Made by a program: the position numbers and the translations under genes
Shown: one piece after another, positions 14,076 to 55,280 of the stretch
How positions within the stretch are numbered: position 1 is the first letter of the stretch
How the letters are laid out: each line of letters opens with the position of its first letter
The notes under the pieces: model-generated
Databases searched by the model: none
Seen by the model: the letters and a program-made list of their open reading frames with translations, nothing else
Told to the model about the DNA's origin: nothing
IMG/VR virus record: IMGVR_UViG_3300006104_000014
Coordinates: 1-64,000 of that record
DNA length: 64,000 nt
From: a virus
Reading direction: 5' to 3' (one strand)

Positions 14076-14800
14076 ACGTAGGGTACCTGGTAGTATGGAT
14101 GTTCTGGCCAAAGGTTCTCTAAGGTGCAAGTTTGATTTACTATCTTAGAGTTCGTAGGAAATGGTTGATTTCCAGTTCTATAGGGTTTTATAGCTGAGTT
14201 GCTTGGACCAGTTCTTACAGTAACGGGACTAACATTTGATACTTGGAATCTAGTTGAAGAAAGTACTGGAGTATCTCCATCCCATTGTTCAATTCTTACA
14301 ACTAAATCACCCTGTCTCAATTGGGGAAACCAAGAAAATTGTACTTGGGGATTCTGTTGCCAAAACTGTCCAGTTTCTAAATTCTTTCTCGTATCTGCAG
14401 TATCAGAAGCCAACATATAGAGGTGGTAAGCTACAGGTTGAAAACCACCTGTAAATGTAGTACCATAGCAAGTTTGACAATAAGAGTTACCAGTCTGCTT
14501 ATATACTGCAGAAACTCTAGACCTTATATTAGCATTAGGATTAGAAGGGTCTGGGGAGTCTTGACATTCCTGGCAATAAGTAACTAGACCAGCTTTTGCA
14601 TCTTCAGCTCTCCAAAGTAACCTTACAATACACTGCTCACCAAACCATTGTAAGGCTTCATCATGGAATCTTTGCTGATCAATCTCAGCCCAATTTTCTG
14701 TTTGCTTACGGACATAGAGAGAGGACTCAACCTGAAATGGAATAGTCTGTAGAGGTGGAGTAGGTTCCTCTATTGGTCCATAAGATGGCTGAATTGACAC
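14072..14800 (-). CDS. Head closure / neck protein with CxxC pairs
   Basis: CQEC...CQTCYGTTFTGGF; located in the neck module. Confidence 0.6.
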   Translation of the reverse strand: MSIQPSYGPIEEPTPPLQTIPFQVESSLYVRKQTENWAEIDQQRFHDEALQWFGEQCIVRLLWRAEDAKAGLVTYCQECQDSPDPSNPNANIRSRVSAVYKQTGNSYCQTCYGTTFTGGFQPVAYHLYMLASDTADTRKNLETGQFWQQNPQVQFSWFPQLRQGDLVVRIEQWDGDTPVLSSTRFQVSNVSPVTVRTGPSNSAIKPYRTGNQPFPTNSKIVNQTCTLENLWPEHPYYQVPYV

Positions 14801-15237
14801 TAGTTATCCTCGTGTCTAAACTGTTCTGAGACAGAGTTGGCAAGTGAAGAAAGGTGTTCAGCATGCTCTCTAAGAGCTTCACATTGATCTTCATGTAATG
14901 ATTGATGTTCATCATCAGCAAGTATACCCATATGTCCCTGTAGATTTGACCAAGCATCAAAAGCTGCTGAATGTAAGTGAGCAGCAAGAGCATGAGAAGG
15001 GGAAGTAATTGGGTCAATGCCCCGTTTTTCAGCACCCACTTGTTGCTGTCTAGTTATTGGATGGCCCCCAGTAGTATCATAGGCTAACTTTCCGTGGAAA
15101 TCCATCATATCATCGTGGAGTCCCATCATTTCATTGGCTCTAGTCAAATAATGATTAGCTGTCCAAAACTTAAACTTATTTGTAAAATCTTTAAAATCTT
15201 CATCAGATTCGTTAGCGTAACGTTGATTCCAATCCAC
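14800..15237 (-). CDS. His-rich helical protein with N-terminal MDWNQRYA tag
   Basis: Starts MDWNQRYA; sits between two neck genes with 1-nt overlaps. Confidence 0.65.
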   Translation of the reverse strand: MDWNQRYANESDEDFKDFTNKFKFWTANHYLTRANEMMGLHDDMMDFHGKLAYDTTGGHPITRQQQVGAEKRGIDPITSPSHALAAHLHSAAFDAWSNLQGHMGILADDEHQSLHEDQCEALREHAEHLSSLANSVSEQFRHEDN

Positions 15238-16103
15238 TACATACCACCCATATTTACAGCAGCATACATAAAGTGAGGACGTGCTGGGTTGATAAACATT
15301 CTTGGAATAAGACCACCAGCAACCAAAAGACTTCTCTTAGAACCAACCATGTATGCACGCTTCATCTGACGGAGCTGTTTGTCAGCAATTTCTTTCTCTA
15401 TGTTATAGAGATCCATCCAGCGATTATAGTAATCTCTTCTATTCATCCAGGCAGCATTCATACCTTCTGGAGTAGGTTGCTCAATATAGTTTCTAGCAAT
15501 ATGCTTAATGAAGTGAGCATAGGTTTGAGTAGCTAATACACCCCACCAGGTAGAAGGAAACGGAACCATTGCATTAGAACCCATATCATAAGCTGGACGG
15601 AATACGGGCTGAAACTCATAGTTAATATAGTCTAAAGCTTCTGTTGACATAAGGAATGCAACATCTTCGTACATATTAAAACCAGATTGACTAAGCTCCT
15701 GCAAGTATGGACCACCAGAAGAGGAGTCAAAACTTTTATCTAATCTATGTACAATTCCAGCAACTAATTGCTTTTCATCTGCTGTTAACATTTGCCAATA
15801 AGGCATTGCTTCTGTAATAGTAAAGGAGTCTGAGTAAAACCTTGCATTCCCACTAGTAGTATAGGACCAATTGGCTTTATAGTTACCTAATATAGTTGTC
15901 TCTGTAGAGCTGAGACTATAGGTATAAGTTCCTGTACTTTCACGAGTAGCTGCTGTCCCACTTGGAACCAGTACGACGTTATTATCAGTATTAATAACTT
16001 CTAGGGTCACCGAATTGTCATCAGCATCTGTAAGTGCACCTTGAACATAGATCATAAGCCCAATGGGCTCCACGGAATATTGTGGAATGGGTCTTACCCT
16101 CAT
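15237..16103 (-). CDS. Head-to-tail adaptor (neck) protein
   Basis: Ig-like N-terminus plus helical C-terminus with RRDYYNRW; synteny. Confidence 0.6.
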   Translation of the reverse strand: MRVRPIPQYSVEPIGLMIYVQGALTDADDNSVTLEVINTDNNVVLVPSGTAATRESTGTYTYSLSSTETTILGNYKANWSYTTSGNARFYSDSFTITEAMPYWQMLTADEKQLVAGIVHRLDKSFDSSSGGPYLQELSQSGFNMYEDVAFLMSTEALDYINYEFQPVFRPAYDMGSNAMVPFPSTWWGVLATQTYAHFIKHIARNYIEQPTPEGMNAAWMNRRDYYNRWMDLYNIEKEIADKQLRQMKRAYMVGSKRSLLVAGGLIPRMFINPARPHFMYAAVNMGGM

Positions 16104-23665: not shown

Positions 23666-24679
23666 TCAGCTCTTAACGATCTTACCAAGGCCTCTTGGGT
23701 TAAGAACAATCTCGGAAACGAGCTCGTCCATGACCCAACCCTTGTGGAACTTCTCAGGAGTGTGGTTCTCCTCGACGTCTAGGGAGTACATGACTGGGAA
23801 TACACCTAAGAACTCAGGCGATGGGGTCATGTAAACGGTACCCTGAGGAACCTCGATCGAACGCTGGACTTGGAAGCCACCGAACTGAACGATTCTCTCA
23901 CCGGCTACAACGCGGTCCTTGAAGGCCCAACCGGTCTGGTTGATGTCCCACTTGTAAAGGTCACGGTAGTCAATTGGGTTGAACAGCAAGCGGCTGGCCT
24001 CCAACTGGTGGACCTCAATAAGAGCAACCAGGTCGTACATTGAGTCTGGGGTAATGTAACCCGAAAGCTCGTTGATGACGTGGTTAGGACTAACCGTGTG
24101 GTTAGGGTCAACAGCGTAGTTGTTAATAGCAGCCTCGAGCACCGTGATAAGACGGGCGTCTTCCTGCATCATGATAGCCTGCTTGGACATGTCCTGAGCA
24201 TACTCTACGATGTTGACTCTGAGGTACCAGAGGTCTTCCTTTTTGATTTGAGGGAACGTGGCAATACGGAACAGTCGGACCGGAACCTTTTTACCTTCGA
24301 ATGGGGTTACACGAACCTCACCCTCGTTACCCGACAGGATGTAGGCCTGGCCGTACTCGTCCAGGACATCGTACATAACAGGAACACCAGGGGTCAGTGG
24401 GTCCTCAAGCAGTACGTTACGGGTCATACCCTGATAACGGAGCTTAAGCTGGATAGGACCAATCATACCCTGGCCCAGACGGACCATATAGTTGTCCTTG
24501 TCAGCAAGGATCGAAGCTAAACGACGTTGCTTCTCCTCACGGGTGGCCGAAACACGACCAGTAGCGGTTTTGAGACGGTCACGAGCCTCAATAATGTCGG
24601 ATACATAACTGTCCGACTTTTTGGCGGTACGTGGTTGCAAGTGGTCTGCAACTCCGCCCATTGGGGTAATTGTACTCAT
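23666..24679 (-). CDS. Major capsid protein
   Basis: 337 aa with strong high-expression codon bias and AGGAAAGG RBS; lies after portal-protease-scaffold-decoration; C-terminal GWVMDELVSEIVLNPRG. Confidence 0.85.
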   Translation of the reverse strand: MSTITPMGGVADHLQPRTAKKSDSYVSDIIEARDRLKTATGRVSATREEKQRRLASILADKDNYMVRLGQGMIGPIQLKLRYQGMTRNVLLEDPLTPGVPVMYDVLDEYGQAYILSGNEGEVRVTPFEGKKVPVRLFRIATFPQIKKEDLWYLRVNIVEYAQDMSKQAIMMQEDARLITVLEAAINNYAVDPNHTVSPNHVINELSGYITPDSMYDLVALIEVHQLEASRLLFNPIDYRDLYKWDINQTGWAFKDRVVAGERIVQFGGFQVQRSIEVPQGTVYMTPSPEFLGVFPVMYSLDVEENHTPEKFHKGWVMDELVSEIVLNPRGLGKIVKS

Positions 24680-25266: not shown

Positions 25267-28002
25267 CTAGAGGGTCATCAGGAAGTCATCAGCGATGATG
25301 TCCTGACGTGTTACTGAACTGGCTGTTGTCATACGGCCCATCTCTGGCATCCGATTGTTACCGGAGGCCACCTTTGCTACCCGGGGTTGACGGGCCCCAG
25401 ATTTTTCGAGCATGTCTACGTTCTCCTTGTAACCAGCGAGCTTTTCAGCAGACATTTGCTCAAACTTTGCAATGTGCATGGCCTTGTCTTCCGAGTTGAC
25501 CATACCCAAACGCTCAAGTCGATCTACTAACTCAATCGACTCTAATACTCTTTCTTTAGCAGCCTGTACAGCAGCTGCAACATTTACGGAACCAGTAGTA
25601 CCTTGGGTTTGGTACTCAAGACCCATGTAACCTTGCAAAGCAGGGTTGGTGGGGTCATTTGGCCATGGCTCACGGTGGTAATTATAAGCAAGACCATAAC
25701 CGGTCTCTCCGCCATCGTTGTAGTAGTCTGGAACGTCAGCTAACTGAAGCTGGTTAGGCTGTAAGTTAGGAACTGTAACCTGAGTCATTGCATCAGGTTG
25801 CATTACGTACTGACGGTCAAAAATACCGGCCTGGTCGTCAAGGTCTCTTACGTCCGTTGTACGACTGGTCTCTTGGTTACCATTAGTACCAATCTTGGAA
25901 ATACTCGAAAGGCTTTCCTCAAGTTGGATTAAGCTATTGCTAGCTGTACGGGTGTCCAGGGAGTTGTCAAAGTACTCTTCGAGATCAGCAGCAAACTTAA
26001 CTAAGGCCTTTGCTGTCTCAATTTCGTGCCTAGAAGACGTACGGAGGTTAGTGCTGTAATTGATAATTACAGAAGCAAGACGGTCTCTTAAGGTACTAAA
26101 GTCACCATCGCCATTAGCTTCAAGCTCTGTACGGAGGTTTCTTGAGGCTTCGTAGGCTTTGTAAAGAGATTCTTCAACACCATCGTATACTACAGCAGAT
26201 CCTCTAATATTTGGACGTGTACGAGCACCACCTGCACCATCTGCTGGGGTAGGCTTACCAAATGAAATGCCCTTTGCACGTCCACGACTAGATGCCTCTG
26301 GAGGAGTAGGCCCATGTAATGCTTCCATAGACTCTACAAAGTTTTGAGCGTATTCGTGGTTACCTGGACCGTGAGTCTCAGGAGTAACAACTTCACCACC
26401 GTCGTGGTGGTATTGAATACCGTGCCACTTACGCTTTGTTCTGTCACTGTATTGAGTTGTGACTACAGATGGGGAAGAAGGAAGATTCTCTCCTGTGTCT
26501 GAGTCAACAAATGGGATGGAATCTGGGTGAGCCGAACCTTCAGCAATTTGGTGAGGATAAGCATAACCTGCTGGAAGGTTGGATGGGTCATAGTCGTGAC
26601 CGGTGATTCTTCCAAAGTACTGACCCTGGTCATCACCCTTTCTTTCACTTGGATATGGGGCAAAGATACCACCAGCTGGGTGAGCCTCTTTGAAGGCTTT
26701 AGCATGCTCAATTGGGTCTACTTCTACTTCACGACCATGCTCATCGTAGTCAGTACCAAATCGGTCAACTGGGAACGTTCCAGGGGCCCAACCTTGGTTC
26801 ATGTTGAATGGCTTACCACCGGAAAGTGGGGAACCGTTAATGTTTTCTGGAACAGCTGTCTTTACAGAACCAAGCTTTTTCTTTCTGCAATCTGTACACA
26901 TGGGTGCACCGTCAACTCTACGGGTTGGAGTGTTGGTGCAGCCTTCTGTAGTACAATTTGAACTACGAAGTGGTGTACCCTTACCCTTAGCAAACTTAAT
27001 TTGCTCATCGCCACAAGGAGCACAAAGGTTGATTACTTCACCGTAACCAGCAACTTTGTAGGTGTCAGCATAGTCACCACAGGCGTCACAGGAAACAGCA
27101 GAAGCTCTTTTAGCTGTATTGTAAGGTAACCAACCAGGTTGCTCAAAGCTAGCAGGAGTACCAGCTACTTGAGGACCGGCGATGGGTTGTTGTTGCCAAG
27201 GAGACATTTCTGCATGTACCTCATTGCTTCCAGGACCACCCTGAATGTCGGGTGCATCAAGATTTGTAACATCTAACCAACGCTCTGGATAAACATCTTT
27301 CCACATGTCCATCTCTGGGGTTGGGGCTTGGGAGGACAGACCAAAGGGTCCATCCAAGTTCATGTTAGAAGTTTGGTCATACTGTACTCCGGGTACAGCT
27401 GCCTCTCTTCTAAGCTCATCGTCAAATCGACTCATTCTAGCTCCTGTCGGTTGTCTTTTGTCTTCTACTACTTCTGGATTGTGAATAATGTTATTCTCAA
27501 CCCCGGTAAGCTGATCGTCTTCTACTTCGGCTAAGTTGTCTTTGCCTAAACTATCAACGGAAGATTTCTTTGGATTCTTACCTGTATCCCTATTAGGATT
27601 CTTTTTGTTCTTTTCCCAGGGGATTACCTTTAGCTTTGGGTTACGCCCTATAACGTTGTCTTTATTCTGATCATTTGGATGCATTAGCTCCGGGGCTGTT
27701 GTAGTCCTACCACAAGACTCACACCAACCAACGGTGCAATTGGGGCACTTATCCTCTTGTTGTTTCTTTGCAGAATTTTTCTCTTGTAAAGCCTTCTTTT
27801 GATCTTCTTGTTGCATGTAAATATCTTCGGCCATCTGAGTCTTTTCACTCACATAACCACAACTCTCACAAGCTTGTCCATCATAAGTTGTACCACATTG
27901 GGGACATGGGCCCATATCCTGTGTGGTATCAACATCTGCCGGAATTCTTATTTTCTCTTCTGCAAACTTTAGAAGCTCTGCAGAGACTTTAAGAATTGGC
28001 AT
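25267..28002 (-). CDS. Large scaffold / prohead-core-like polyprotein with Zn ribbons
   Basis: Between protease and capsid genes; several CxxC modules; many KTA/RTAS/KFAA/KVAS motifs; helical C-terminus. Confidence 0.55.
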   Translation of the reverse strand: MPILKVSAELLKFAEEKIRIPADVDTTQDMGPCPQCGTTYDGQACESCGYVSEKTQMAEDIYMQQEDQKKALQEKNSAKKQQEDKCPNCTVGWCESCGRTTTAPELMHPNDQNKDNVIGRNPKLKVIPWEKNKKNPNRDTGKNPKKSSVDSLGKDNLAEVEDDQLTGVENNIIHNPEVVEDKRQPTGARMSRFDDELRREAAVPGVQYDQTSNMNLDGPFGLSSQAPTPEMDMWKDVYPERWLDVTNLDAPDIQGGPGSNEVHAEMSPWQQQPIAGPQVAGTPASFEQPGWLPYNTAKRASAVSCDACGDYADTYKVAGYGEVINLCAPCGDEQIKFAKGKGTPLRSSNCTTEGCTNTPTRRVDGAPMCTDCRKKKLGSVKTAVPENINGSPLSGGKPFNMNQGWAPGTFPVDRFGTDYDEHGREVEVDPIEHAKAFKEAHPAGGIFAPYPSERKGDDQGQYFGRITGHDYDPSNLPAGYAYPHQIAEGSAHPDSIPFVDSDTGENLPSSPSVVTTQYSDRTKRKWHGIQYHHDGGEVVTPETHGPGNHEYAQNFVESMEALHGPTPPEASSRGRAKGISFGKPTPADGAGGARTRPNIRGSAVVYDGVEESLYKAYEASRNLRTELEANGDGDFSTLRDRLASVIINYSTNLRTSSRHEIETAKALVKFAADLEEYFDNSLDTRTASNSLIQLEESLSSISKIGTNGNQETSRTTDVRDLDDQAGIFDRQYVMQPDAMTQVTVPNLQPNQLQLADVPDYYNDGGETGYGLAYNYHREPWPNDPTNPALQGYMGLEYQTQGTTGSVNVAAAVQAAKERVLESIELVDRLERLGMVNSEDKAMHIAKFEQMSAEKLAGYKENVDMLEKSGARQPRVAKVASGNNRMPEMGRMTTASSVTRQDIIADDFLMTL

Positions 28003-28003
28003 T

Positions 28004-28657
28004 TCAAGTCCTCATTTTAGCAAGAATACCAGCTGATTCGTCGGCGGGATCAAAAACGTAGCTAAGTTCAAAAAAGTTAGGTTTTACACAACTTTCGTAA
28101 ATTAAAACTTCTTTTCTTGAACTATCTTTATAAATAGAGACCCTTTGTCCCTTTAACTTAGGAATATGTTCACAAAATTCTGAAGGCTTAGAGGCTACTT
28201 TGTGGCAACCAGAGCAAATAGTTGCATCTACGTCAGCACCCATACTAACAGCATTCAATTTACCTTCCATAATAGCATTAGCTAATTTTGGAAAGCTTTC
28301 TGCATCAACCTCGGATAAAGCATAAACGGAACCATCAACAAGACCGGAAGCTAACTTTGTCTCCTTGTAAATAACATCAAGGATAACACCTTTAGCTTTA
28401 GTATGGTCACTGTTGTTGTGCTCTACGAACATTGGACGGCCAATAAATGTCTTATAGGCTGTTCTTAATTCGTGTACTGGCCAACCGTCGTAATTAGCAT
28501 TTACTCTGGAGGAGATTGCTCTAGATACGGTATAAACCATACCTTTTTCAGGAGTAAATCTAAAGTCCTGAAAGCCCACCTTATGCATTTGGATGGTCTC
28601 ACTTGGGGCTCCGTACCCCAGGGACCTTAATGATGGGCTTCCGAATTTTTTAAACAT
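28004..28657 (-). CDS. Prohead (capsid maturation) protease
   Basis: NANYDGW, GRPMFVEH, AVSMGA, FFELSYVFDPAD motifs of HK97/assemblin-like proteases. Confidence 0.8.
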   Translation of the reverse strand: MFKKFGSPSLRSLGYGAPSETIQMHKVGFQDFRFTPEKGMVYTVSRAISSRVNANYDGWPVHELRTAYKTFIGRPMFVEHNNSDHTKAKGVILDVIYKETKLASGLVDGSVYALSEVDAESFPKLANAIMEGKLNAVSMGADVDATICSGCHKVASKPSEFCEHIPKLKGQRVSIYKDSSRKEVLIYESCVKPNFFELSYVFDPADESAGILAKMRT

Positions 28658-29700: not shown

Positions 29701-32037
29701 TTACATGTCCCCAAATTGACTAATATCAGGGCTGTCCATTCCACCATCACCACTATGGTGTGAACCAGCACCCATGGGATCTGTAGCTTCTTCACTTCCA
29801 TGTTGATCTGGTACTACTTGAGCACCAAGATCAGAAGCTAAGTGTTCTCTAAACTCATCTTCATTAAACTTCTCATAACTATCATCTACGATGATCTTCA
29901 TACCAGAAGCAAGCTTCATTCTAACACGCTTCTTTTGCTCAATTGGTACGGCAAACTTCATACGGTTACCATACTCAACTTTACCCTGGAACTCATCATT
30001 GTCATCTTCATCCCAAAGACTGCCATTAACCGAAGAGGTTTTCTTCTTCTTTTTAGGCCCTGTCTTACCCCTAGCTTGATTTTGCTTAGGTTGAGAACCC
30101 TTTTGCTCATCTGATTGCTCTGGTCTTTGTCTTGGGTTTGGTACAGGACCAGAAGGATAAACTTCAGCAGCTCCACTAACATCGGATTGAGCAGCAGGTC
30201 CCGTAAGATTAGGGGCAGCAGGAATAGAGGAAAGGTCGGCCATTGCTTGAGGAGACATTGCAGCACCAATAGATGGGTCCTGAAGCATAGAAACATAAGC
30301 TTCGTATTCCTGTACATACTCTGGGGGAATAGGAAGCTGAAGAATCATTAATCTATCAAAGAGTTCCTTCTTATACTCCTGCTCAGCAACAACTGATTTA
30401 ATCTTCTCATCCTTACGGGCCTTGAGTTCATCATCAAAGTCAATTGGGATATTAATAGCAAGGGTACCAAGGGATACTGGGAATCCACTAGCAGCTAATT
30501 GCTGTAAGAATCCTCTTTCTACCGTTTCATCTCTGAGGTTCATAGACCGGAATCTAACCTCAGGAATAGCTAACTTAGGCCGTTCTTCTACGTATTCTTC
30601 TCCGGTTTCATCATCTACCATGAGAACCGTTTCCATAATAGGAACCATTTGGCCACCTACCTTACGGTACTCAAAGTGACCCTGTCTTTCAGCAACAGGT
30701 TCCATACGTGATCTAATGAATCTATCAATCTTATGCTGGTAGGTACTTAACATCTGGGTAATCAATTCTCTGTTAAGAGCACCAGAAGCATAAGTAGCTG
30801 AACTAGAACCACCCTGGAGTAACTCAGCACCAATACCAAAGACCTGCATAACTTTAGATTCTACACGCATAAAGTCAGCATCTAGTCTTGGCATACTTTC
30901 TCTACCGAAAGCATTCTTAATATCTAATCCATGGTGATAGGTCATTAAACGGAAGTCCGAGTTAATGGCCATACTTAGGTCATCTCTTAGTGACTGAAGT
31001 TCAGTAGCATCCGGAATCCAAGGACCATCTTCGTCAACATTAGGAAGACCAAGAGTAGCAAGGATAAGGGGAGAATACAGGCGGTCAGCAATAGCATCCT
31101 GAGCAGCATTAAGAGATTCTTCCAGCATAAGCATACGAAAAGCACGAAGAAGAATAGGAGTACCATGCTCACTCCAGGGGTTAGTCTTAAACTTTAACTG
31201 CTTCATAATAACATCAGAAACAGGAATTTCTTTATCCTGCTTAGCCCAGGCAACAATATCTGGGTAGAGTTGCATAAGCATTGCATACTCTTGGGCAGGT
31301 TCTCTGGTATCGATGAGTTTCTTAATCTCATCTGGAACTTTAATATGGTACTGGTAGGTTCTAAGAGCTCTATTCTTAGCTACAATAACATCGTTAGGGT
31401 TAATGATTTCATCATCTTCCCAGGCACCAATACCATCATGCCATGACCCCATAGCAAATGCTTCACCAACTGTCCAATGCTCTCTACCAAGGTCAAACAA
31501 AAACTCTTGGTAGTCCAGACCATCAAAGAATAATTCTGTGTAGAATTGTGCAATTCTTTTATCTGGGTGAGCAAACTCAATATCGAGAAGAGGATACCGA
31601 GTATAAATATCGATAAGTGAGGGGACTAAGTAGTGAGTAGTATAAAGAAGACGTGCCCAGTCTCTAATCTTCTTCATTTGCTCATCGGGGTCCTCCATGT
31701 TGAACCACCAGGTTCTCTCCCTCCAATATTCGAAAGGGTCATGAAGTTTTGGCCAGGCCCACTGAGCATCTGAGCCTGTTGCTGCAGCAGTACGACGGTT
31801 TTGAGTATTTGCAACCCCAAAGTCCGGAATACTGCTAAATTTTTCTAACTTTTCTCTACCACGTGATTCTTGCTGCATGGCCATAGGGCCAACATCATTA
31901 AGCATAGATCCTTGTCTTACGTTAGTAAGGATCTCTTTCGTGGCTAATCTACCACGTACAGGGTTACTAGGGAGTGTTAAGCCTTCACGTCTCATTCTCT
32001 GAAACTCGGCTGATGCACTCTTATCTTCTCTAGTCAT
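29701..32037 (-). CDS. Portal protein
   Basis: HGTPILLRAFRMLMLEESLNAAQDAIADRLYSPLILATLG clip/stem pattern; first gene of the head module. Confidence 0.85.
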   Translation of the reverse strand: MTREDKSASAEFQRMRREGLTLPSNPVRGRLATKEILTNVRQGSMLNDVGPMAMQQESRGREKLEKFSSIPDFGVANTQNRRTAAATGSDAQWAWPKLHDPFEYWRERTWWFNMEDPDEQMKKIRDWARLLYTTHYLVPSLIDIYTRYPLLDIEFAHPDKRIAQFYTELFFDGLDYQEFLFDLGREHWTVGEAFAMGSWHDGIGAWEDDEIINPNDVIVAKNRALRTYQYHIKVPDEIKKLIDTREPAQEYAMLMQLYPDIVAWAKQDKEIPVSDVIMKQLKFKTNPWSEHGTPILLRAFRMLMLEESLNAAQDAIADRLYSPLILATLGLPNVDEDGPWIPDATELQSLRDDLSMAINSDFRLMTYHHGLDIKNAFGRESMPRLDADFMRVESKVMQVFGIGAELLQGGSSSATYASGALNRELITQMLSTYQHKIDRFIRSRMEPVAERQGHFEYRKVGGQMVPIMETVLMVDDETGEEYVEERPKLAIPEVRFRSMNLRDETVERGFLQQLAASGFPVSLGTLAINIPIDFDDELKARKDEKIKSVVAEQEYKKELFDRLMILQLPIPPEYVQEYEAYVSMLQDPSIGAAMSPQAMADLSSIPAAPNLTGPAAQSDVSGAAEVYPSGPVPNPRQRPEQSDEQKGSQPKQNQARGKTGPKKKKKTSSVNGSLWDEDDNDEFQGKVEYGNRMKFAVPIEQKKRVRMKLASGMKIIVDDSYEKFNEDEFREHLASDLGAQVVPDQHGSEEATDPMGAGSHHSGDGGMDSPDISQFGDM

Positions 32038-36560: not shown

Positions 36561-36563
36561 AGG

Positions 36564-36652: not shown

Positions 36653-36686
36653 ACTCCTAGACTGAGCTAGGAAACTTATTACTTAG

Positions 36687-36926: not shown

Positions 36927-36948
36927 AACTTTTCCTTTCTTTTAGGAG

Positions 36949-38136: not shown

Positions 38137-38534
38137 TAGAGGTCTCCGTTATTATAAGTAGAACGTGGATAGAAATATGGATTATCTGTTAAGATCTTTA
38201 CTGGGATCGGCTTATCTGAAGCTATTTCCAATGAACTAATAAGTCTGTGGTGTCCTTCAAAAATTTCTTTATCAGCAACATTTCCATCTCCGCCACCCTT
38301 ATATTCGATGACGGCAATAGGTTTACTTAGACCATTCTTTTTAATGTCATCATGTAATCCAGACTCTTTAGATTCTTTTAGCTTTTGTTGCCAAAAATTC
38401 TCTGGGTCAGGAGAGTCAGATAGTTCACCCATATTAACTTCATAGTTAGATATTATTTCTCTAGGAGTTTTATACTCCATACGATCATAGTCAGCATGTG
38501 GTGCTATAGCGTATCTTTGTTTCCAATTAATCAT
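38136..38534 (-). CDS. ParB/Sulfiredoxin-like protein with MINWKQRYA tag (true start 38534)
   Basis: LHDDIKKNGLSKPI...IFEGHHRL ParB/Srx motif. Confidence 0.75.
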   Translation of the reverse strand: MINWKQRYAIAPHADYDRMEYKTPREIISNYEVNMGELSDSPDPENFWQQKLKESKESGLHDDIKKNGLSKPIAVIEYKGGGDGNVADKEIFEGHHRLISSLEIASDKPIPVKILTDNPYFYPRSTYNNGDL

Positions 38535-46323: not shown

Positions 46324-48386
46324 GACTTACCTCTGTTAAACTTAATTCTAGAAGTCCCACGACCAAAACTAAAACTATCTACACCTCTTAATATAGGAGT
46401 TGTATCGTCCTCTACAGCCTTATGCTCTACACCTGGACGGGTTTGTAGTTTCTTTGAGCAACCATTTGCACAAACACCCTGGGTACCTTCTTCACCACAA
46501 CTTGCACAACCTTGAATTGGGTCGAACTCTTTTGAGTCACAATTACCACACTTTAATGGTTGGTCAGCTGCACCACAAGCTAAACATCCAATATCACTTG
46601 GAGTAGACTTTCCATGTACACAATTTGGGTCTCCACATGCACAAACGTCTAAGCTTAATGGATCAAACATTTCATCAGCACCCCTGACCTCTGGGGTGTC
46701 TAAATTAAAATTTACTATCGATGTCCTATCGGCTGGGTCATCGTTTGGGTCAGCATCATATTCATCACCAATACGTGCAGCGGTAAAACGGATCTCTCCA
46801 CCACAATCGTAGCAAACATTTCCTGAGCCATTGCAGTTTAAGCAACGGGATCCAATCTTGGTATTACCCTCGTCGTCAATGCAACTTTCCTGTGCACAAG
46901 CAGCTACTTTAATTCCATTACACTCAACACAGCTAGCCATTTTGATTGGAACATGAACATGAGTTCTGTTGGGAGGAGCTGATTGGGTTGGGGTCATACG
47001 ATAGATCTTACCGTCATTGTATCCGTGGATATAGTCATCGGAGACAGCTGCAATTACTTCATCCAGCTTTTTGTTTTCTCTGGCATCCCAGTACCCTTGG
47101 AAGTACAAATCAGAGTCTGTAGCCTTCTTTGTTAGACTCTCATTATAACCTACAGAACCCCACCTCATAACGTCACCATCTCCTACACTTGCTGGATCAG
47201 CTCCGTCTGATGCTCCACCATTACCCATACCAACTAGAGCTATTCTATCTGAACCTTCTCCACCAAGCCAATGCCCGTCTTGCATAGCTGGTAATGAATC
47301 AGCATCAGCAAATCTATGGAAAGACAACATTTGTTGCTTTTGATTTGTTACACTTGCTGGTTCAGTCTCTGTAGATGGATCAACTGGATTAGCAGCCGGA
47401 TTAACCTGACCCATAGGAGCAGTTGGGGTTACGGGTGCTGTTGGGTTCAACCCTGAGTTAGTCATCATTCCACTTGCAGCAACTACTTTGAAGTATTTTC
47501 CACCAAGGAAAGTAGAACCAGCTGACTCTCCACCAGGAGAACCACTTTCTGCTGTTCCAAATAATGGTCCCTCATACCCTACACCAGATGGGTCATCTGA
47601 ATGTTCTGCATTAGCAGCACTATCTGCTCTTACAATCCAGGAACTTTGTTTATTGAAAGCTGGACCCCACTTATTTCCATGAGATTCTAAGCTATATTGT
47701 GGGTGTTGTGGAGTTTGTTCTGGCTCTGTATCAAGACCAATTTGTCTAAGCTGGTGTTCAAAATCAAACTCTCCTAAAGCTTTTCGAGTTTCAGCTATTT
47801 GGGGGTCTTCAGCATAAGTTCTGGGAGCTGTTTGTTGTCTATTTCTTACTTTATTGACAACATATGCAGTCCCTGCAGCTAAACCAGTTGCACCAAGCCC
47901 TAAAGCTACTTCTTTAAGAGCATGCCCTCTATTAGCTGCTTGCTGTGCTGGTGTAAGAGCATGCTGAATAGCTTGGGCAGGCCAACCATGACCTGTAGGA
48001 CCATTAGCTTCCTTACCCATACCAGCAGCATCCATAGCATCATACTTAGAACGCTTTTGAGCACAATCTTCCTCGGAAGTACAAGGTTCGTCTCCGTATT
48101 GGGCATGCCAATGGTCATGTCCTTGGTCATGTCGAAGAATGTCCTCTAAGGGTTCACCATCACCAGCAATCATATCGAGCTTTTGATCTACTTCTTCAAG
48201 CTTTTGTAAAATTTGTGGTTCAAGATTTCCTGCAGTTACCCAAGTTGAGGGTCTTACAGAAGCTTGTCGCTCTTTACCAGCACAGGCACTGCAAAGTCCC
48301 TCACTATTTAATGGACCAGGTCCACCACACTCTGAACAGGTCTCTTCTGAATCCTGTACCTCAGAAAATCTTAACGGAAGTGTCAT
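46320..48386 (-). CDS. Modular Zn-ribbon-rich putative internal head polyprotein
   Basis: Many CxxC modules separated by KEA/RFA/KKA/KMAS linkers. Confidence 0.55.
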   Translation of the reverse strand: MTLPLRFSEVQDSEETCSECGGPGPLNSEGLCSACAGKERQASVRPSTWVTAGNLEPQILQKLEEVDQKLDMIAGDGEPLEDILRHDQGHDHWHAQYGDEPCTSEEDCAQKRSKYDAMDAAGMGKEANGPTGHGWPAQAIQHALTPAQQAANRGHALKEVALGLGATGLAAGTAYVVNKVRNRQQTAPRTYAEDPQIAETRKALGEFDFEHQLRQIGLDTEPEQTPQHPQYSLESHGNKWGPAFNKQSSWIVRADSAANAEHSDDPSGVGYEGPLFGTAESGSPGGESAGSTFLGGKYFKVVAASGMMTNSGLNPTAPVTPTAPMGQVNPAANPVDPSTETEPASVTNQKQQMLSFHRFADADSLPAMQDGHWLGGEGSDRIALVGMGNGGASDGADPASVGDGDVMRWGSVGYNESLTKKATDSDLYFQGYWDARENKKLDEVIAAVSDDYIHGYNDGKIYRMTPTQSAPPNRTHVHVPIKMASCVECNGIKVAACAQESCIDDEGNTKIGSRCLNCNGSGNVCYDCGGEIRFTAARIGDEYDADPNDDPADRTSIVNFNLDTPEVRGADEMFDPLSLDVCACGDPNCVHGKSTPSDIGCLACGAADQPLKCGNCDSKEFDPIQGCASCGEEGTQGVCANGCSKKLQTRPGVEHKAVEDDTTPILRGVDSFSFGRGTSRIKFNRGKS

Positions 48387-49129
48387 TATAGTTTCTCAAT
48401 ATCTGCTAAGAGGTCATTAAGGCGTAGTTGCCCATATTTACCTGCTATTACGATCTCTGGTGTAATGATGGCCCAAGACTCATCCATGTAAGCTTGCAAC
48501 CAGCTCCAAGCAATTGGTTGTACAGCTCCCCAGGTAATTCCGTATGCGTAATCCTTATCGTAGCCTACAAGGATAATACAATGTCCACCGAGGATATTTC
48601 TATCAGCTTGTGTATGGGTTAAAGTCCAAGGCTTATGGGCTGCAAATTGACTTTCAGCTGGAGTTGGAAGCTCAATACCAATGTAAGCTAAGCCATAACT
48701 AGCAATTACTGACTTTAACTCTTGGAAATCTGCTCTATCTGTAGGAGCATAAGCTGCAATCTTGGACCCAAATAATGGATTAGACTGCCAGTACTTAAGT
48801 AGATCAGCCTCTACAGCACCAGAATCTTGTCCATTGGTATATTTTAAATAAGCTTGAACTACTTGCTGTGTAGTTGGAAATGTTTCTTTAAGGGAAAGGG
48901 TAGAAGCTGTTGCCATTCTAGCGTGTACAATACCAGCGAAAGTACAATCACCGTACTGATCATTCCCTAACATCTCCCAGCTAGCAACTTTGGGGACAGA
49001 AACAGAAACTGGGGCAGTTGGCAAAGGATTTTTCTGGTAAAATGCTAAAGCATGCAACCCTTCTGGCCTTTGTGGGGCAAGTTTACCAAGTTTTCCTATG
49101 TTTCTTTCCGACATTTCATCCCCAAACAT
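48386..49129 (-). CDS. Papain-like (C1-type) cysteine peptidase
   Basis: NDQYGDCTFAG, GGHCIILVGYD, ITWG. Confidence 0.8.
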   Translation of the reverse strand: MFGDEMSERNIGKLGKLAPQRPEGLHALAFYQKNPLPTAPVSVSVPKVASWEMLGNDQYGDCTFAGIVHARMATASTLSLKETFPTTQQVVQAYLKYTNGQDSGAVEADLLKYWQSNPLFGSKIAAYAPTDRADFQELKSVIASYGLAYIGIELPTPAESQFAAHKPWTLTHTQADRNILGGHCIILVGYDKDYAYGITWGAVQPIAWSWLQAYMDESWAIITPEIVIAGKYGQLRLNDLLADIEKL

Positions 49130-49628: not shown

Positions 49629-50249
49629 CTAGTCCTTATAAAAGTTTCCAAATGATTTAACTTCATCGGTATGGAGGTGTCTACTTACGTCTGGAACACT
49701 AAGGAGTACATTTTTTAACCGTTTCCAGTTTCCTTTTGATAGTCCAACCGTGTACTGAAGATAATCTTTAATTTGACTAGCAGTATGTTGAGTAGCTCTA
49801 TCCCTCAGTTCTTCTATTGGACCTTGATCAAAGTGATCTGCTAAACACATTCTATCGTTAGAGCGCAGATCACCTTCTGTGCTTCCCGTTGAGTCTCTTT
49901 GAATACGCTTAAAGAAGTCACTAAATCTTACAGCTTTTTCATCTTCCCCAAAAGCTATTCCACACATTGGGCATTTATGCTCTTTGATAGCCATTTGTTC
50001 TCTATCATAATTGTTTAATGGAGCTCCACCATTACTTAAGAATTCAGCAACAAACGGAATTGGAACTCTTTTATGTAGGACAATGTCTTTTCCAGGGTTT
50101 GCAGTTTCGGTAGATGTAGAAGGTCTTGGGAGTCCTAGAGTGTAAGCATTTTCAGGTGTCCATTCTACTGCATTTTTTACAAAGTGACTGGGTCCATGAC
50201 AGAACGTACATCGAGGTCTACTAGCATATCTTTGACTCCAGTTAATCAT
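49629..50249 (-). CDS. Tagged (MINWSQRYA) Zn-binding protein
   Basis: Tag plus CPMCG..F...E.AVR and GPIEELR shared with 53731-55035. Confidence 0.7.
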   Translation of the reverse strand: MINWSQRYASRPRCTFCHGPSHFVKNAVEWTPENAYTLGLPRPSTSTETANPGKDIVLHKRVPIPFVAEFLSNGGAPLNNYDREQMAIKEHKCPMCGIAFGEDEKAVRFSDFFKRIQRDSTGSTEGDLRSNDRMCLADHFDQGPIEELRDRATQHTASQIKDYLQYTVGLSKGNWKRLKNVLLSVPDVSRHLHTDEVKSFGNFYKD

Positions 50250-50515
50250 TTTTTTGCTGCTTCTCCATCATGGAATTGTCTAAGCTCTAATGCTTTTTTC
50301 TTTAAATTGATGTCACCTTTGGGCTTGCTAGTTAGGCCTCTTTGCCAGGCTCTCTTAGATGTATCAATCTTTACCAATACATCCCTGAGTAGATCTGCAG
50401 CCTGGGTATGGTAGCTTTGAGTCTCACTAGGTGTACTGGTATGTTGGGTATATTTCCCCCAAGCCTCTTGTACACTAGGAGAGAACGAAGAGGCGTACCT
50501 CTCAGCCCAGTTCAT
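50246..50515 (-). CDS. Tagged (MNWAERYA) small helical protein
   Basis: Tag; overlapping start and stop. Confidence 0.65.
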   Translation of the reverse strand: MNWAERYASSFSPSVQEAWGKYTQHTSTPSETQSYHTQAADLLRDVLVKIDTSKRAWQRGLTSKPKGDINLKKKALELRQFHDGEAAKK

Positions 50516-50855
50516 CTATAATCCTCTGCATTTGTTGACGAGCTGTTGAATTTTTACATTCTGGGCATAGACGTTGACTATGCTCACGTGGGTCTGCAAG
50601 AAGTCCACGATTTACGTTATTCCTATATTTTTCAAGACCCATATCTCCACGTAAAAGAACAGCTTCGTTGTGTTCTTCTCTATTACAGTGCAAACAAGTA
50701 CCACCAAATTCTTGGTGGTCTCTATAGTGTTGAAATAAGCGTTCTACTTTTTCGTGGGGATCGGGTATTTTTTCTAAATCTTTGTGTTCAGCTGAGATCA
50801 ATTCTGGATCTTTTCTCCAGTCTTGAAAAGCTGCATATCTTTGTAACCAATTCAT
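50502..50855 (-). CDS. Tagged (MNWLQRYA) Zn-finger protein
   Basis: Tag; CLHC...CPEC. Confidence 0.65.
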   Translation of the reverse strand: MNWLQRYAAFQDWRKDPELISAEHKDLEKIPDPHEKVERLFQHYRDHQEFGGTCLHCNREEHNEAVLLRGDMGLEKYRNNVNRGLLADPREHSQRLCPECKNSTARQQMQRIIDELG

Positions 50856-50864
50856 GATATTTAC

Positions 50865-51056
50865 CTAACAGTTTAGACAGTTATTACCATCATTAGTAAG
50901 TTCATTAGCTGCTACAAGAGTGCCACAGCTTTTGCATCTTCTGGCAACAGGATTATTTTTAACTGCTCGTTCAGAGTTGGGATTATTTGACATAAAGCCA
51001 CGAATCTTTTCTTGTAAATCTTCTGCTGCTGTAGAGTAGCGTTCGGCCCAATTCAT
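50865..51056 (-). CDS. Tagged (MNWAERYS) Zn-ribbon protein
   Basis: Tag; CKSC...CLNC. Confidence 0.65.
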   Translation of the reverse strand: MNWAERYSTAAEDLQEKIRGFMSNNPNSERAVKNNPVARRCKSCGTLVAANELTNDGNNCLNC

Positions 51057-51472
51057 GAGATGAACTTCCTGATGTATTTTTCGGCTTCGTAATCTGAAGC
51101 ACTAGCAACGTGGGCTCCACCATGGCCTCTGTGGTGGAAAAAGCATAACCAAACTAAATTGTCAGCACTCTCTACCCACTTGCCAACGCTGTCGGGGTCG
51201 CTCACGCCGGGATAATCGGCTTCCAACCACTTGAGATCCACTCCATTCTGGAGTGCAAACTCTATATGAGCGTGATGAAGCTCGAGTGGCCGGTCAAGAG
51301 AGCACTCAGAAAAGTCATTATGATGAAGGCCAACGGCACACTGAGCGGTTGCATGAGTTTTTCTACGGTAAGCATTAAAATCGACATAATTAGGGTCTCC
51401 CTCTCTTGGTTCATGCTCTGGAAAGTGAGCTGTATATCTATGTGTTTCGTTTCTACTATGTGCTTCTGTCAT
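51053..51472 (-). CDS. HNH-like (beta-beta-alpha-metal) protein
   Basis: LELHH...DNLVWLCFFHH...H. Confidence 0.55.
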   Translation of the reverse strand: MTEAHSRNETHRYTAHFPEHEPREGDPNYVDFNAYRRKTHATAQCAVGLHHNDFSECSLDRPLELHHAHIEFALQNGVDLKWLEADYPGVSDPDSVGKWVESADNLVWLCFFHHRGHGGAHVASASDYEAEKYIRKFIS

Positions 51473-51984
51473 TTGCCTTCAGCCTTATGTCTATCGTCAC
51501 ACGTGGGGCACCAAACCCAACCAATAGCTGCCCAGTAGTCTTTCATATGGTCGTTTACCCCAACATTTCTAACATCTTTTTCATCGATGGGTTTTCCACA
51601 ACTAACACAAGGAACTCTGGGATGGAGTGTCCCTTCTTTGTGGAATTTTTTCATCCAAGCTAACCAGTCAGGAGTTCCCAATGACTCAATGTCTCCAGTG
51701 GCTCCCCAAGCAAATTGAGAATGCTCATCTGCTTCACTATCATTAAGAGTCAACAATCGGTGGGAGTTGTAATGTAATTGAGCAGCTGCACTGTGGAGTC
51801 TAATTAAACGTCCGAGGCCACTATGAGTCTCACCTGTATCTTGAATAGCTTTCCTTTGTAGGTTCATTAACCTACGGGACTCATCTTTGTGGGTAGCCAT
51901 TTGATGAATATGGGACCCAGGTTGAAAGCCAGCTAATTCAGCTTCAACTAAACTCATACGTGGATGGACATCGTCATCAATCAT
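51469..51984 (-). CDS. His-rich helical protein with C-terminal Zn finger
   Basis: LHSAAAQLH; CVSC...CPTC. Confidence 0.6.
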   Translation of the reverse strand: MIDDDVHPRMSLVEAELAGFQPGSHIHQMATHKDESRRLMNLQRKAIQDTGETHSGLGRLIRLHSAAAQLHYNSHRLLTLNDSEADEHSQFAWGATGDIESLGTPDWLAWMKKFHKEGTLHPRVPCVSCGKPIDEKDVRNVGVNDHMKDYWAAIGWVWCPTCDDRHKAEGK

Positions 51985-52316
51985 TATTTTGCTTTATTCT
52001 TTTGTTGACGTTTCTTTTGCTTTTCTTCATCTGCAGCTTGGGCTCTACCTGTATAGACTCCAATAGCATCGTAGTCATCACATTTACTGCACATATGACT
52101 ATTAGCTAGATTTTGTATAAAAGAGTCACTATGTATACCCTTACCTTGTCTTCCAATGATAGCTACAACGTGGTCATGTTGAGCTTCTCTAGAAACTAAA
52201 GCATAGCGTACTGCTCCGAATGTTTTTAATTTATCTCTAGAACTAAGCTGACCCCATATGGCTTCAATATCATCAGTTACCTGTTTGCTCGCTGCATACC
52301 TTATAGACCAGTTCAT
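51984..52316 (-). CDS. Tagged (MNWSIRYA) hypothetical protein
   Basis: Tag; coupled ORF. Confidence 0.65.
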   Translation of the reverse strand: MNWSIRYAASKQVTDDIEAIWGQLSSRDKLKTFGAVRYALVSREAQHDHVVAIIGRQGKGIHSDSFIQNLANSHMCSKCDDYDAIGVYTGRAQAADEEKQKKRQQKNKAK

Positions 52317-53734
52317 AGTATATCTTCAAACCCTTCATAGCCAGGAGCAAGCTGTCGCCATGGGTAAGCCCGTTGAAACTTGTTAGCTATATTAATCAGC
52401 CTATTGTCCTGATAGTGCAGCGCTGTTACCTGCAAACCGAACGGCAATCCATTAGAACACGCACCGAACGGTATGGATATTGCAGGCACACCTGTGACAT
52501 TTTGCATTGACTCGTTATAGTCTTTTGCTGGTGGATTATAGCTACCATCAGCAGCGAAGCCAGGGTTTGGATTGGTTGGCGTGAGAAGCAGTCCATCGCT
52601 GCCAAGGAGATCATCAAGATTTTTAATATACATAAACCTCTTGCGTCGAAGATCCATGTATTCTTGTAGGTCTACACCCTTACCTATAGTTAAAAAGTCT
52701 TTACCAGATTTAGTTAGTTTGTCCCAGTGCTTGTCTACCCACTGCTTGCCAAATTTAGTATACTGATCTGCTGACACAGCATTGTACCACTCAAGATCCG
52801 GATTGCCCTCTGGGAAAACATCCCGTGGCTCTATCCATATCACTTCGCGCTTCATTAGCTTACCAAATGCTTCTGCTGCCTCTTTAAACTTTTCAGCAGT
52901 CTCTGCTGGCAGCTTTCCAAATGGTGACGTTCTTTCAGCTGCGTATATCTTACCGACACCATATTCTTTATTGTCCAGGAAGTTAACAGCGTCCAGTGGC
53001 AAGCTTGCTGGGTCGCCAGGAGTAGGTGTTTTAAGGATATTATACATTAGTTGTAAATCGTCAGCAGAGTTAGCTAGAATACCATCAGTGGAGTAATCTA
53101 TCCAATCTTGTGCAGGCCACCGGCCTATCATGCCATTGGTTGGCTTCAGCCCAAGCAGCCCACAGTAACCTGCTGGTGTGCGAATAGATCCGCCACCGTC
53201 TGTACCTGTAGCTGCAAAGACCAGGCCAGCAGATAGTGCAGCAGCACTACCACCACTACTACCACCAGGAGCTAGCTTAATATTCCAGGGGTTAGTTGTT
53301 ACTCCTGTTAGATCATTGGCTGTGTAGCCATTGCAACCAAACTCGGGTAGTGTGCTTTTGCCAACAAAAATAAACCCACTAGCTCTCATCTTTGCTGGAG
53401 TAGCATCGTCTTGCTCCTCTGGCTTTGCATTCTTAAATGCAACGCTGCCCTTTTTAGTTGGCATGCCTTTAACATTCTGCAGATCTTTTATCAGTGCTGG
53501 TACACCATGGATTGCTCTAGTAGCTTGACCACTATCAAACATTTTAGCTTGTTGGAGCGCGTCATCATATGCTTCGTGTGCAATGACATTAAGATCTTTG
53601 TTATACTTTTCTATATTACTTATACTTTTTTCTACCAGCTGGGTAGATGTGACTTTGCCAGACTGTAGAGCAGCAACAGCGCGTGTCAATGGACCAGAAT
53701 TTTTACTAGATGAATAGCGTTGTGACCAGTTCAT
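52313..53734 (-). CDS. Amidase-signature (GatA-like) enzyme with MNWSQRYS tag
   Basis: GVPALIKD, PGGSSGGSAAA, GTDGGGSIRTPA, GLKPT: Ser-cisSer-Lys triad motifs. Confidence 0.9.
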   Translation of the reverse strand: MNWSQRYSSSKNSGPLTRAVAALQSGKVTSTQLVEKSISNIEKYNKDLNVIAHEAYDDALQQAKMFDSGQATRAIHGVPALIKDLQNVKGMPTKKGSVAFKNAKPEEQDDATPAKMRASGFIFVGKSTLPEFGCNGYTANDLTGVTTNPWNIKLAPGGSSGGSAAALSAGLVFAATGTDGGGSIRTPAGYCGLLGLKPTNGMIGRWPAQDWIDYSTDGILANSADDLQLMYNILKTPTPGDPASLPLDAVNFLDNKEYGVGKIYAAERTSPFGKLPAETAEKFKEAAEAFGKLMKREVIWIEPRDVFPEGNPDLEWYNAVSADQYTKFGKQWVDKHWDKLTKSGKDFLTIGKGVDLQEYMDLRRKRFMYIKNLDDLLGSDGLLLTPTNPNPGFAADGSYNPPAKDYNESMQNVTGVPAISIPFGACSNGLPFGLQVTALHYQDNRLINIANKFQRAYPWRQLAPGYEGFEDIL

Positions 53735-55035
53735 TGGTATTGCTCTTGTCTTTGTTCAACATTTTTACGACGTTCTTCTGCCCTACAGTCAAGGCAAGGT
53801 TGTCTAGACATATTGGGTTGTAACAACTGGCCTAATGGAACTGTATTATAGCAACTTAAGCAAGTACCAACAGATTGTGGTTTTTCAGAAGCAGCTGGTG
53901 TTGCAGCTTGTTCTGTTTGCTGTGTTTGGTTTCTTTTACGGTACTGTCTTCTTGGAGTCTTAGGGGCAGCTTTACTATCACGGTCTTCTGTTTCGTTAGC
54001 TGAATACTCTTTGGGTGAATAGTTTTTTACAAACTCACTGTAGTCATCAGAGCCTTTTGATAATCCAGCATTTACAGCAGCTTGGTGAGCAGCAGCATAA
54101 GTTCTACAACCCTCACAGGGCTTTTCTTTTAAGTTGTAGTGTTTTGATAAGTTAGAGTGGCTAGGTTGACCTTTTGGGTCTTCAGAATCCCAATCATGTT
54201 CTACACTTGCTTCTGGCCTATTAAGGTAGGCCATTCCACTATGTACACTACCATGCTTGTTAGACATCATAGCTCTAAAGGCAGCTTCTGCTTTTGCCTT
54301 TGAAGTGTGGTGAGATAAGATCTTACCTGTACCCTTTTGCCAAATTACCCAGCTTTTAGACTTCTTATCGTAACGTACATAATGGTATCCATTTTCAGAT
54401 GCATACCTTTCATTCCAATTAGCACTACCCATATGCCCTTCCATAAAAGGCTTCATCGATTCTTGTAGGTACTCATCATGGAAGGAATGTGCATTCATCT
54501 TAGAGTAATTTTCTCTAAGTTGTTCAATTGGGCCTTCTTCAATATTTGTACCCGACGACCTAGGAAATAATTCAGAATGGGGCTGTGTCTCTTGTTCAGA
54601 TCTACTTGGAAGTCCATGACAAAATACCATCAAATCTGATAAGCAATTTGAGTGTGCAGGTCCAGCAAAATGTGCACCAAAATCTGATGGAAGTATTTCT
54701 CCATCTTCACTAGGACCTGGGACTAAACGTTTTGCCATTTCTCCAGGTTTAAACTTATCCCCACACCAAATACAACGGTTTTCTCTGATGCACTTTTCAT
54801 GCATCATTGGGTTGATGCCACCGTCTGGATGCATAGTATAACCTACAGCATGTGGCTCGTCACTAAAGGAGCCTCCACCAGTAGGTCCATAGAATTTTCT
54901 AGTTGGAACGTAGTGTGGTCTTGACCTTCCAATAGGTGGATCCCATATCATACTTCTGTTCCAAAGTTTCTTTGGCTTAGCGTATCTCTTGTCCCAAGCT
55001 AAGGAACCTAAATAGTTAGTCATACTTTTACTCAC
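53731..55035 (-). CDS. Multi-module protein with an N-terminal (WDKRYA) and an internal (NWNERYA) tag
   Basis: CIWCG...H..C....C domain; second tag near 54400-54420. Confidence 0.7.
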   Translation of the reverse strand: MSKSMTNYLGSLAWDKRYAKPKKLWNRSMIWDPPIGRSRPHYVPTRKFYGPTGGGSFSDEPHAVGYTMHPDGGINPMMHEKCIRENRCIWCGDKFKPGEMAKRLVPGPSEDGEILPSDFGAHFAGPAHSNCLSDLMVFCHGLPSRSEQETQPHSELFPRSSGTNIEEGPIEQLRENYSKMNAHSFHDEYLQESMKPFMEGHMGSANWNERYASENGYHYVRYDKKSKSWVIWQKGTGKILSHHTSKAKAEAAFRAMMSNKHGSVHSGMAYLNRPEASVEHDWDSEDPKGQPSHSNLSKHYNLKEKPCEGCRTYAAAHQAAVNAGLSKGSDDYSEFVKNYSPKEYSANETEDRDSKAAPKTPRRQYRKRNQTQQTEQAATPAASEKPQSVGTCLSCYNTVPLGQLLQPNMSRQPCLDCRAEERRKNVEQRQEQYQ

Positions 55036-55280
55036 CTATACTTTTCCAATACGTCTAAGGCATCGCTTATACCAGCAGCTCTATCTGGGCTATAAATACC
55101 ATTACCAGCTGCAAGGTGGGCATTAGCAGCTACAAGGTGGGCCCTTGATAAAGGTCCCTCTGTATTTTTTGACCGGTCTAAATGGTATAAGTGTCTAGTA
55201 CCATGGTCGTAGGGATCTAATTCAGTCTGAATAAAAGGCCCAAGTGATACTTTCTTAAAACGCTCATTCCAACTATACAT
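55032..55280 (-). CDS. Tag-variant (MYSWNERF) His/Ala helical protein
   Basis: GGAG RBS before ATG at 55280. Confidence 0.6.
   Translation of the reverse strand: MYSWNERFKKVSLGPFIQTELDPYDHGTRHLYHLDRSKNTEGPLSRAHLVAANAHLAAGNGIYSPDRAAGISDALDVLEKYR

Follow-up and report, generated by a model that had tools for sequence, protein, structure and literature searches.

A portable octapeptide labels hypervariable, effector-like proteins of a freshwater phage lineage and is a candidate capsid-loading tag

Why should a SET-domain protein, an amidase-signature enzyme and a series of small proteins of one phage carry the same eight residues at their N-termini? The question is raised by a 64,000-nucleotide (nt) stretch of phage DNA (IMG/VR record IMGVR_UViG_3300006104_000014, positions 1 to 64,000; hereafter the window), part of a contig of 77 kb, in which the genes in question encode a peptide of the form [M]-[N/S/D]-W-x-x-R-Y-[A/S] (hereafter the tag). 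A preliminary description of this DNA had placed the peptide on at least 10 diverse proteins, and every copy that it listed was indeed found on the minus strand where it had been reported. The octapeptide is a portable short linear motif that labels a hypervariable, effector-like set of accessory proteins, and it probably serves as an address or docking tag. Every gene of the window, including those cited below by their coordinates, lies on the minus strand.

A tag under selection at the level of the peptide

A six-frame scan of the window for W-x-x-[RK]-[YF] recovered 12 in-frame copies of [N/D/S]-W-x-x-R-Y-[A/S], all on the minus strand, 10 of which open their open reading frames (ORFs) as M-N-W, M-I-N-W or (GTG)-D-W. 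The DNA pattern TGGNNNNNNMGNTAYKC was matched 14 times compared to the 0.78 matches expected from shuffles (sd 0.88), with 0 of 100 shuffles reaching 14; the in-frame tag copies account for 12 of these 14 matches. A search of the remaining 13 kb of the contig beyond the window yielded zero additional copies. Codons vary freely among the copies, with Arg encoded by CGT, CGC, AGA or AGG, Tyr by TAC or TAT, and the closing Ala or Ser by GCN or TCN, indicating that selection acts on the peptide and not on the DNA. Only the three MINWKQRYA-type copies share DNA, over a stretch of 26-37 nt, as a result of recent local duplication. Taken together, these findings demonstrate that the tag is under peptide-level selection. 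The same freedom of codon choice rules out a DNA-level element or a role in translation start; as regards the latter, Shine-Dalgarno strength upstream of the tagged genes did not differ from that of the other ORFs, which form a crude control set.

A logo of 61 non-redundant copies found W and Y in all 61 and R in 60. The last position is Ala in 54 of the 61 copies and Ser otherwise, the residue preceding W is N in 44 and else S, D or K, and half of the copies have N at tag position 4. In 43 of 61 copies the tag is followed by a small residue (S, A, N, T or G), and in 31 of 61 E or D comes next. Substitution of F for W was also seen (MNFNERYA, MSFNERYA). The spacing from Met to Trp ranges from 1 to 4 residues, and 36 of about 49 non-redundant copies in relatives lie no more than 6 residues from the start. 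At least 10 proteins carry two tags (the 434-aa protein of the window, L162, L167, L005, P0123, P0126, P0128, P0129, P0133 and P0134), the second being positioned exactly between modules that are found elsewhere as separate tagged genes. Some internal tags retain their Met, while others (ER[IV]AS-W, LGSS-W, TATN-W) have no possible start codon alongside. A free N-terminus is therefore not required, which counts against explaining the tag by an N-degron, by methionine processing or by translation start. The internal copies fit either a docking motif or a processing site.

Within the window, one tagged ORF lies in the tail module (14800..15237; 145 aa; GTG start; MDWNQRYA with its W codon at 15231). 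It is without homologue at the equivalent site in relatives G001 and G005, and another tagged gene fills the slot in L006. A tagged SET-domain protein of 131 aa (37741..38136; MINWKQRYA, W codon 38127) was labeled as such in the preliminary description, and the label is borne out by a Pfam match (PF00856, E 4.2e-8). The adjoining 132-aa tagged protein (38136..38534; MINWKQRYA, W codon 38525) had been termed ParB-like; here no Pfam match was obtained, and the ParB/Srx likeness is by eye only, from an EGHHR motif. Its paralogue at 37228..37734 reads MINWK*RYA (W codon 37725), with TAA as codon 6 in a frame that is otherwise open. The same letters occur in the contigs of runs X1 and X2, which are possible source samples. 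We looked for an in-frame restart near the TAA and found none, and the gene is thus either a fresh pseudogene or a case of read-through.

Further tagged genes occupy the region from 49629 to 55280. The first encodes a Cys-rich protein of 206 aa (49629..50249; MINWSQRYA, W codon 50240, then CxxC), and is accompanied by genes for proteins of 89 aa (50246..50515; MNWAERYA, W codon 50509) and 117 aa (50502..50855; MNWLQRYA, W codon 50849). A zinc-ribbon-like protein of 63 aa (50865..51056; MNWAERYS, W codon 51050) is the product of the only tagged gene of the window with clear orthologues in relatives (84% identity). A 110-aa protein (51984..52316; MNWSIRYA, W codon 52310) and an amidase-signature enzyme of 473 aa (52313..53734; MNWSQRYS, W codon 53728) follow, the earlier assignment of the latter being confirmed by its match to PF01425 (E 2e-71). 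The two-tag protein of 434 aa (53731..55035) bears LAWDKRYA at residues 13-20 (W 54996) and NWNERYA at about residue 206 (W 54417); its second half matches a separate gene of relative G010 (MNFNERYA) that directly precedes terL. Membership is uncertain for an 82-aa protein with the weak variant MYSWNERF (55032..55280; W codon 55271). Just upstream of the first tagged gene lie 400 nt without an ORF (55293-55692, minus strand) that contain a match to TTGACA-17-TGTAAT, and the small gene preceding this stretch (~55693-56040) is unusually G+C-rich.

Cargo and distribution of the tag

The tagged proteins form at least 25 groups without BLAST similarity to one another outside the tag. Domains recognized among the cargo include SET and amidase, together with weak, sub-threshold ParB hits in a different tagged family of the relatives, and CxxC zinc-ribbon-like starts are present in 21 of 55 tagged proteins. 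The tagged proteins are also less acidic, with a median pI of 6.9 compared to 4.85 for the rest of the proteome. One domain that is flanked by tags on both sides (L162:8634-9998, L167:1443-3062, P0123 and P0133) was placed among ADP-ribosyltransferases, including clusters of the T4 ModB type, by ESM Atlas features (score 0.94), a placement that is a lead only: these features are its sole support, and zero Pfam or PDB sequence matches were obtained. ADP-ribosyltransferases of freshwater phages have been discussed as 'Trojan horse' toxins (PMC6802176). The cargo types (ADP-ribosyltransferase-like, SET, amidase) thus appear to resemble known injected effectors.

The amidase offers the clearest instance of portability. 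We compared the N-termini of 120 homologues. Cellular amidases begin M-x-x-x-P-G-P-L and are without the tag, the closest (~50% identity) being from Acidimicrobiales. In the phage copies, MNWSQRYSSSKN / MNWDSRYAMGKN is put in front of the cellular-type start, such that their N-termini are MNWSQRYSSSKNSGPL and MNWDSRYAMGKNAGPL, with the tag in place of the first few residues seen in cellular homologues. A copy of 62% identity starts MMGPL and is tag-free. Since the Acidimicrobiales homologues lack it, the tag is an add-on to a captured enzyme. The preliminary description had proposed a portable tag with mostly unrelated domains downstream, and this view is strengthened by the number of families and by the captured amidase: at the level of sequence, the tag is shown to be portable and to have been added to unrelated as well as captured proteins. 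A 971-aa protein of the window (41751-44666), with 28 Cys and internal repeats spaced ~1 kb apart, has a tagged homologue of 376 aa (32% identity) in the tail-module slot of L006, indicating that tagged and untagged forms of one module coexist.

A motif search of the genome and its relatives, as the preliminary description had proposed, revealed that the tag recurs in related IMG/VR contigs. An exact-pattern scan of IMG/VR recovered 22 loci, ~17 of them with 1-6 tagged ORF starts, and use of the neighboring cysteine protease as query added 8 further tag-bearing loci. A profile of 35 N-termini, run against 1.84 billion representative proteins, yielded 11 further true members, and a word-index search with the first 40 residues of one tagged protein returned a single candidate. 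Every tag-bearing contig that holds a major capsid protein has one that is 92-95% identical, and the other contigs share the middle genes. As far as seen, the tag would appear to be confined to the phage lineage of this one head module. Despite the common structural module, the tagged repertoires of the relatives are nearly all different. Contigs of four freshwater runs, compared over the region, displayed strain-level mosaicism only.

We also scanned 185,579 cellular genomes with the DNA pattern. The matches listed (at least 120 loci) were only scattered chance ones: single, mostly out-of-frame or internal, and from many phyla. A host protein with the same start, as might be expected of mimicry or of an L27/Prp-like host protease site, was not among these listed matches.

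The positions of the tagged genes follow a pattern. In every relative, the main tag slot lies between a conserved untagged gene of 139 aa (51053..51472), which is HNH-like by eye and has no Pfam or PHROG match, and the cysteine protease gene (48386..49129). The content of this slot varies from phage to phage, with only the 63-aa gene at 50865-51056 being clearly common. A second slot, in the tail module after the homologue of 15237-16103, is filled in the window and in L006 by tagged genes that differ between the two. The large terminase gene of relative G010 is surrounded by six tagged genes packed with overlapping stops and starts, and that of G001 has one tagged gene directly upstream.

Possible destinations of the tagged proteins

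We tentatively favor the reading, drawn by analogy, that the tag loads proteins into the virion, within the capsid. It is placed first because the tag is tied to one head module, because the cargo resembles known injected effectors, because tagged genes have entered the terminase and tail operons, which are expected to be expressed late, and because T4 provides a precedent (PMC3012670, PMC5512222). The tag would dock accessory proteins onto a component of the assembling head, be it the scaffold-like protein, the capsid interior or the portal. The docked proteins would then be packed into the head together with the DNA and so reach the next host, while multi-tag proteins would be loaded as strings and possibly cut apart by a phage protease. 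The docking partner, packaging in the head, ejection into the host and any cleavage are steps that we infer. In its fullest form, which is conceivable yet doubtful, the proposal is of a loading tag, unrelated to that of T4, by which probably actinobacterial freshwater myophages inject a hypervariable enzyme arsenal, either singly or as multi-tag strings cut in the head. That this arsenal would consist of ADP-ribosyltransferase-like, SET, amidase and nuclease-like enzymes is likewise a rather unsure proposition.

Much would follow if the loading reading were true: sequence alone would reveal the injected effectors, and an 8-residue tag would suffice to load foreign proteins into a head. As an address label, the tag would mark one functional class of genes in uncultured phages, probably acting on the host, and would make a defined, testable set of ~30 families whose function is unknown. 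It would further represent T4-style tagging of a diverse arsenal outside the T4 group, achieved with a different peptide, and a very short handle with which foreign proteins could be loaded. Should the destination prove not to be the capsid, an invariant 8-residue motif on unrelated proteins still implies a specific reader protein.

Both a head-maturation protease and a scaffold-like protein are encoded by the phage, which fits capsid loading. The protease (28004..28657; phrog_18299, E 4e-26) has homologues in PaBG and BcepSauron that are annotated as head maturation protease. The neighboring gene (25267..28002) encodes a scaffold-like protein of 911 aa with a variable, Cys-rich N-terminal part and a conserved, coiled C-terminal part, conservation being found in the C-terminal third. 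These two proteins, separate here, are fused in Mycobacterium phage Catera and in the Gordonia phages CherryTomatoes and RedWattleHog into a single one of 1085-1370 aa, which precedes the capsid gene. On the basis of its position and of this fusion with the protease, the 911-aa protein is a putative scaffold.

Comparison with T4 revealed likenesses as well as differences. The diverse internal proteins of T-even phages share only the capsid targeting sequence (PMC3012670), and T4 Alt, according to PMC5512222, is an ADP-ribosyltransferase that is packaged and injected. In the T4 system (IPI-III, Alt) as in the present one, a short N-terminal peptide is the sole common element of diverse, fast-evolving accessory proteins, the cargo includes an ADP-ribosyltransferase-like enzyme, the phage encodes a head-maturation protease and a scaffold (here scaffold-like), and the tagged sets are hypervariable among close relatives (here with one tagged gene clearly shared between phages whose capsid proteins are 92-95% identical). 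In contrast, the consensus MNW[N]xRYA shares only its Met with MKTYQEFIAE, the present tag also occurs internally, and the phage is not T4-like, its portal and head protease being nearest to those of Mycobacterium and Gordonia myophages.

Several observations weigh against capsid loading. Approximately one fifth of the tag copies are internal and without an adjacent start codon, whereas the T4 capsid targeting sequence is not known to act from an internal position. Most tagged genes of the window lie just past the small-gene region, outside of the structural module, and the papain-family protease beside the main slot offers an alternative route of processing. None of the head proteins carries W..RY[AS], and the 3 KFA ([KR]FA) sites of the scaffold-like protein, compared to 0.86 expected, are not a significant excess and give a hint at most. 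The R-x-A/S cleavage site that the preliminary description had read into the tag was an assumption, and it found no support. At the edge of the conserved part, relatives of the scaffold-like protein carry [KR]FA[SNA], which resembles the second half of the tag. KKYA at the protease/scaffold junction of CherryTomatoes was considered as a clue to a cut site and was set aside, being absent from Catera gp94 and RedWattleHog gp13.

A second group of known proteins bears on the same reading. Polyvalent proteins string effector-type domains, such as ADP-ribosyltransferase-like, ParB-like and zinc-ribbon domains, in one polypeptide; according to Iyer et al. 2017 (PMC5512222), delivery of these proteins is believed to accompany that of the DNA, in some cases with processing by a peptidase. 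Such an arrangement is shared by a minority only of the tagged proteins, two or more effector domains per polypeptide being present in the two-tag proteins named above other than P0134; most of the cargo, in contrast, is single-domain and comes from separate genes. The unifying element likewise differs, being an 8-residue peptide at the start of a module instead of a MuF or zincin-type domain. Neither MuF nor zincin-like MPTase domains gave a Pfam match in any tagged protein, and no shared 8-residue peptide is described in the searched portion of PMC5512222.

Of the alternatives to capsid loading, the one that survives best holds that the tag mediates docking to one shared partner (a host protein such as the RNA polymerase, the ribosome or a chaperone, or else a phage hub protein), which gathers many effectors at one place inside the infected cell without any packaging. 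This alternative is a serious contender, albeit an unlikely one. It accords with the features of a short linear motif, with W, R and Y at i, i+3 and i+4 ahead of a polar or acidic linker, with the ability of the tag to work at internal positions, and with the location of the main cluster directly after the small-gene region. However, the insertion of tagged genes into the tail module and the terL operon would imply a peculiar timing for effectors whose action is confined to the current host, no conserved candidate for a hub was found, and the cellular matches listed, chance ones only, include no host protein family with such a start.

An improbable alternative is that the neighboring papain-family protease uses the tag as a leader or recognition site. 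It would accommodate the aromatic residue in the S2 pocket and cleave past the small one, thereby trimming N-terminal leaders, separating the domains of multi-tag proteins and activating them. The protease gene (48386..49129) does border the main tag slot in every relative, and its product, with invariant Cys62 and His183, has no Pfam match. An AlphaFold2 model (pLDDT 81.6) has a C1-type fold and found its best Foldseek matches in xylellain, Lpg2622 and cathepsins (E 1e-6 to 1e-4, TM ~0.5-0.57), which together with the invariant residues identifies a papain-family enzyme. Papain-family enzymes prefer a bulky hydrophobic residue at P2, as textbooks teach, and this preference predicts a cut after R-Y-[A/S]. 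The at least 10 different multi-tag proteins with tags exactly at domain junctions would also be explained. For both this enzyme and the head protease, sequence searches of PDB returned zero matches, and the AlphaFold2 model of the head protease (5 sequences; pLDDT 47) was too low in confidence for a structure search.

Against a leader function, homologues of the papain-family protease (32-39% identity) are present in unrelated phages and one provirus, all of them tag-free, and tagged genes also occur far from the protease gene. Thus, the link between protease and tag is not general. We looked for a different leader in the distant phages that share the papain-like protease and found none. In one myovirus the homologue lies beside an N-acetylmuramoyl-L-alanine amidase gene, which suggests a role in lysis, and there is no evident purpose in trimming eight N-terminal residues. 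Double-glycine leaders, which are cut by the papain-like C39 domains of bacteriocin exporters, offer a parallel, in that one N-terminal leader is carried by many products and a cysteine peptidase gene is adjacent. In contrast to those systems, the peptidase here is C1-like and without a transporter, the leader is without Gly-Gly, enzymes as large as 473 aa are among the cargo, and the peptidase family also occurs in phages that have no tag.

It is quite improbable that the tag is a stability or turnover signal, one that shields proteins from a host protease or delivers them to it and so sets the lifetime of the accessory set. Most copies do lie close to the start, and a Met-Asn start would, from textbook knowledge of methionine aminopeptidase, retain its initiator Met. 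Nevertheless, internal copies are conserved without an adjacent start codon, the distance from Met to Trp varies, and the tag is not known to resemble any bacterial degron. Least credible of all is a functionless remnant of a single ancestral gene start that duplication and recombination at gene boundaries have spread: although three window copies do share DNA by recent duplication, 60-61 of the 61 copies have the same W, R and Y despite their different codons and downstream proteins, the tag has been added to a captured cellular enzyme, and it is retained across phages whose tagged genes are otherwise non-orthologous.

Structural module and other features of the contig

The structural module includes genes for the major head protein (23666..24679; phrog_2522) and the portal protein (29701..32037; phrog_2833), the latter with ~39% identity to portals of Mycobacterium cluster C phages. 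Further PHROG matches identified tail sheath and tape measure genes, and the large terminase gene was located at 73120-75114 of the contig (PHROG, via the G010 homologue). With identities of 39-49%, the closest counterparts of the portal and the head protease come from Mycobacterium cluster C and Gordonia myophages. The DNA occurs in freshwater metagenomes, with no RNA run listed as containing the region, and the host is presumably a freshwater actinobacterium. Relatives reach 120-132 kb, and the 77-kb contig is therefore a partial genome. Rates of divergence among the relatives are unusually uneven: the capsid protein (23666-24679) is 92-95% identical, compared to 66-74% for the portal and 36-40% for the tail sheath (11450-12898).

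A ferritin/Dps-like gene (44666-45223; PF00210, E 3.5e-14; phrog_3636, 'DNA binding protein') is conserved in all relatives and adjoins genes for large Cys-rich proteins, namely the one at 46320-48386 (25 Cys) and that of the 971-aa protein at 41751-44666. Four tRNA genes, for Ile(TAT), Gln(TTG), Thr(TGT) and Leu(TAG), lie on the minus strand at 36408-37020 and 63684-63766. Lastly, an 84-nt repeat with a TATAAT-like core is present four times (56092-56175, 56227-56310, 60219-60302 and 63159-63242); these repeats read like minus-strand promoters before small genes, and two false ORFs (YYNISFGGN...) derive from them.

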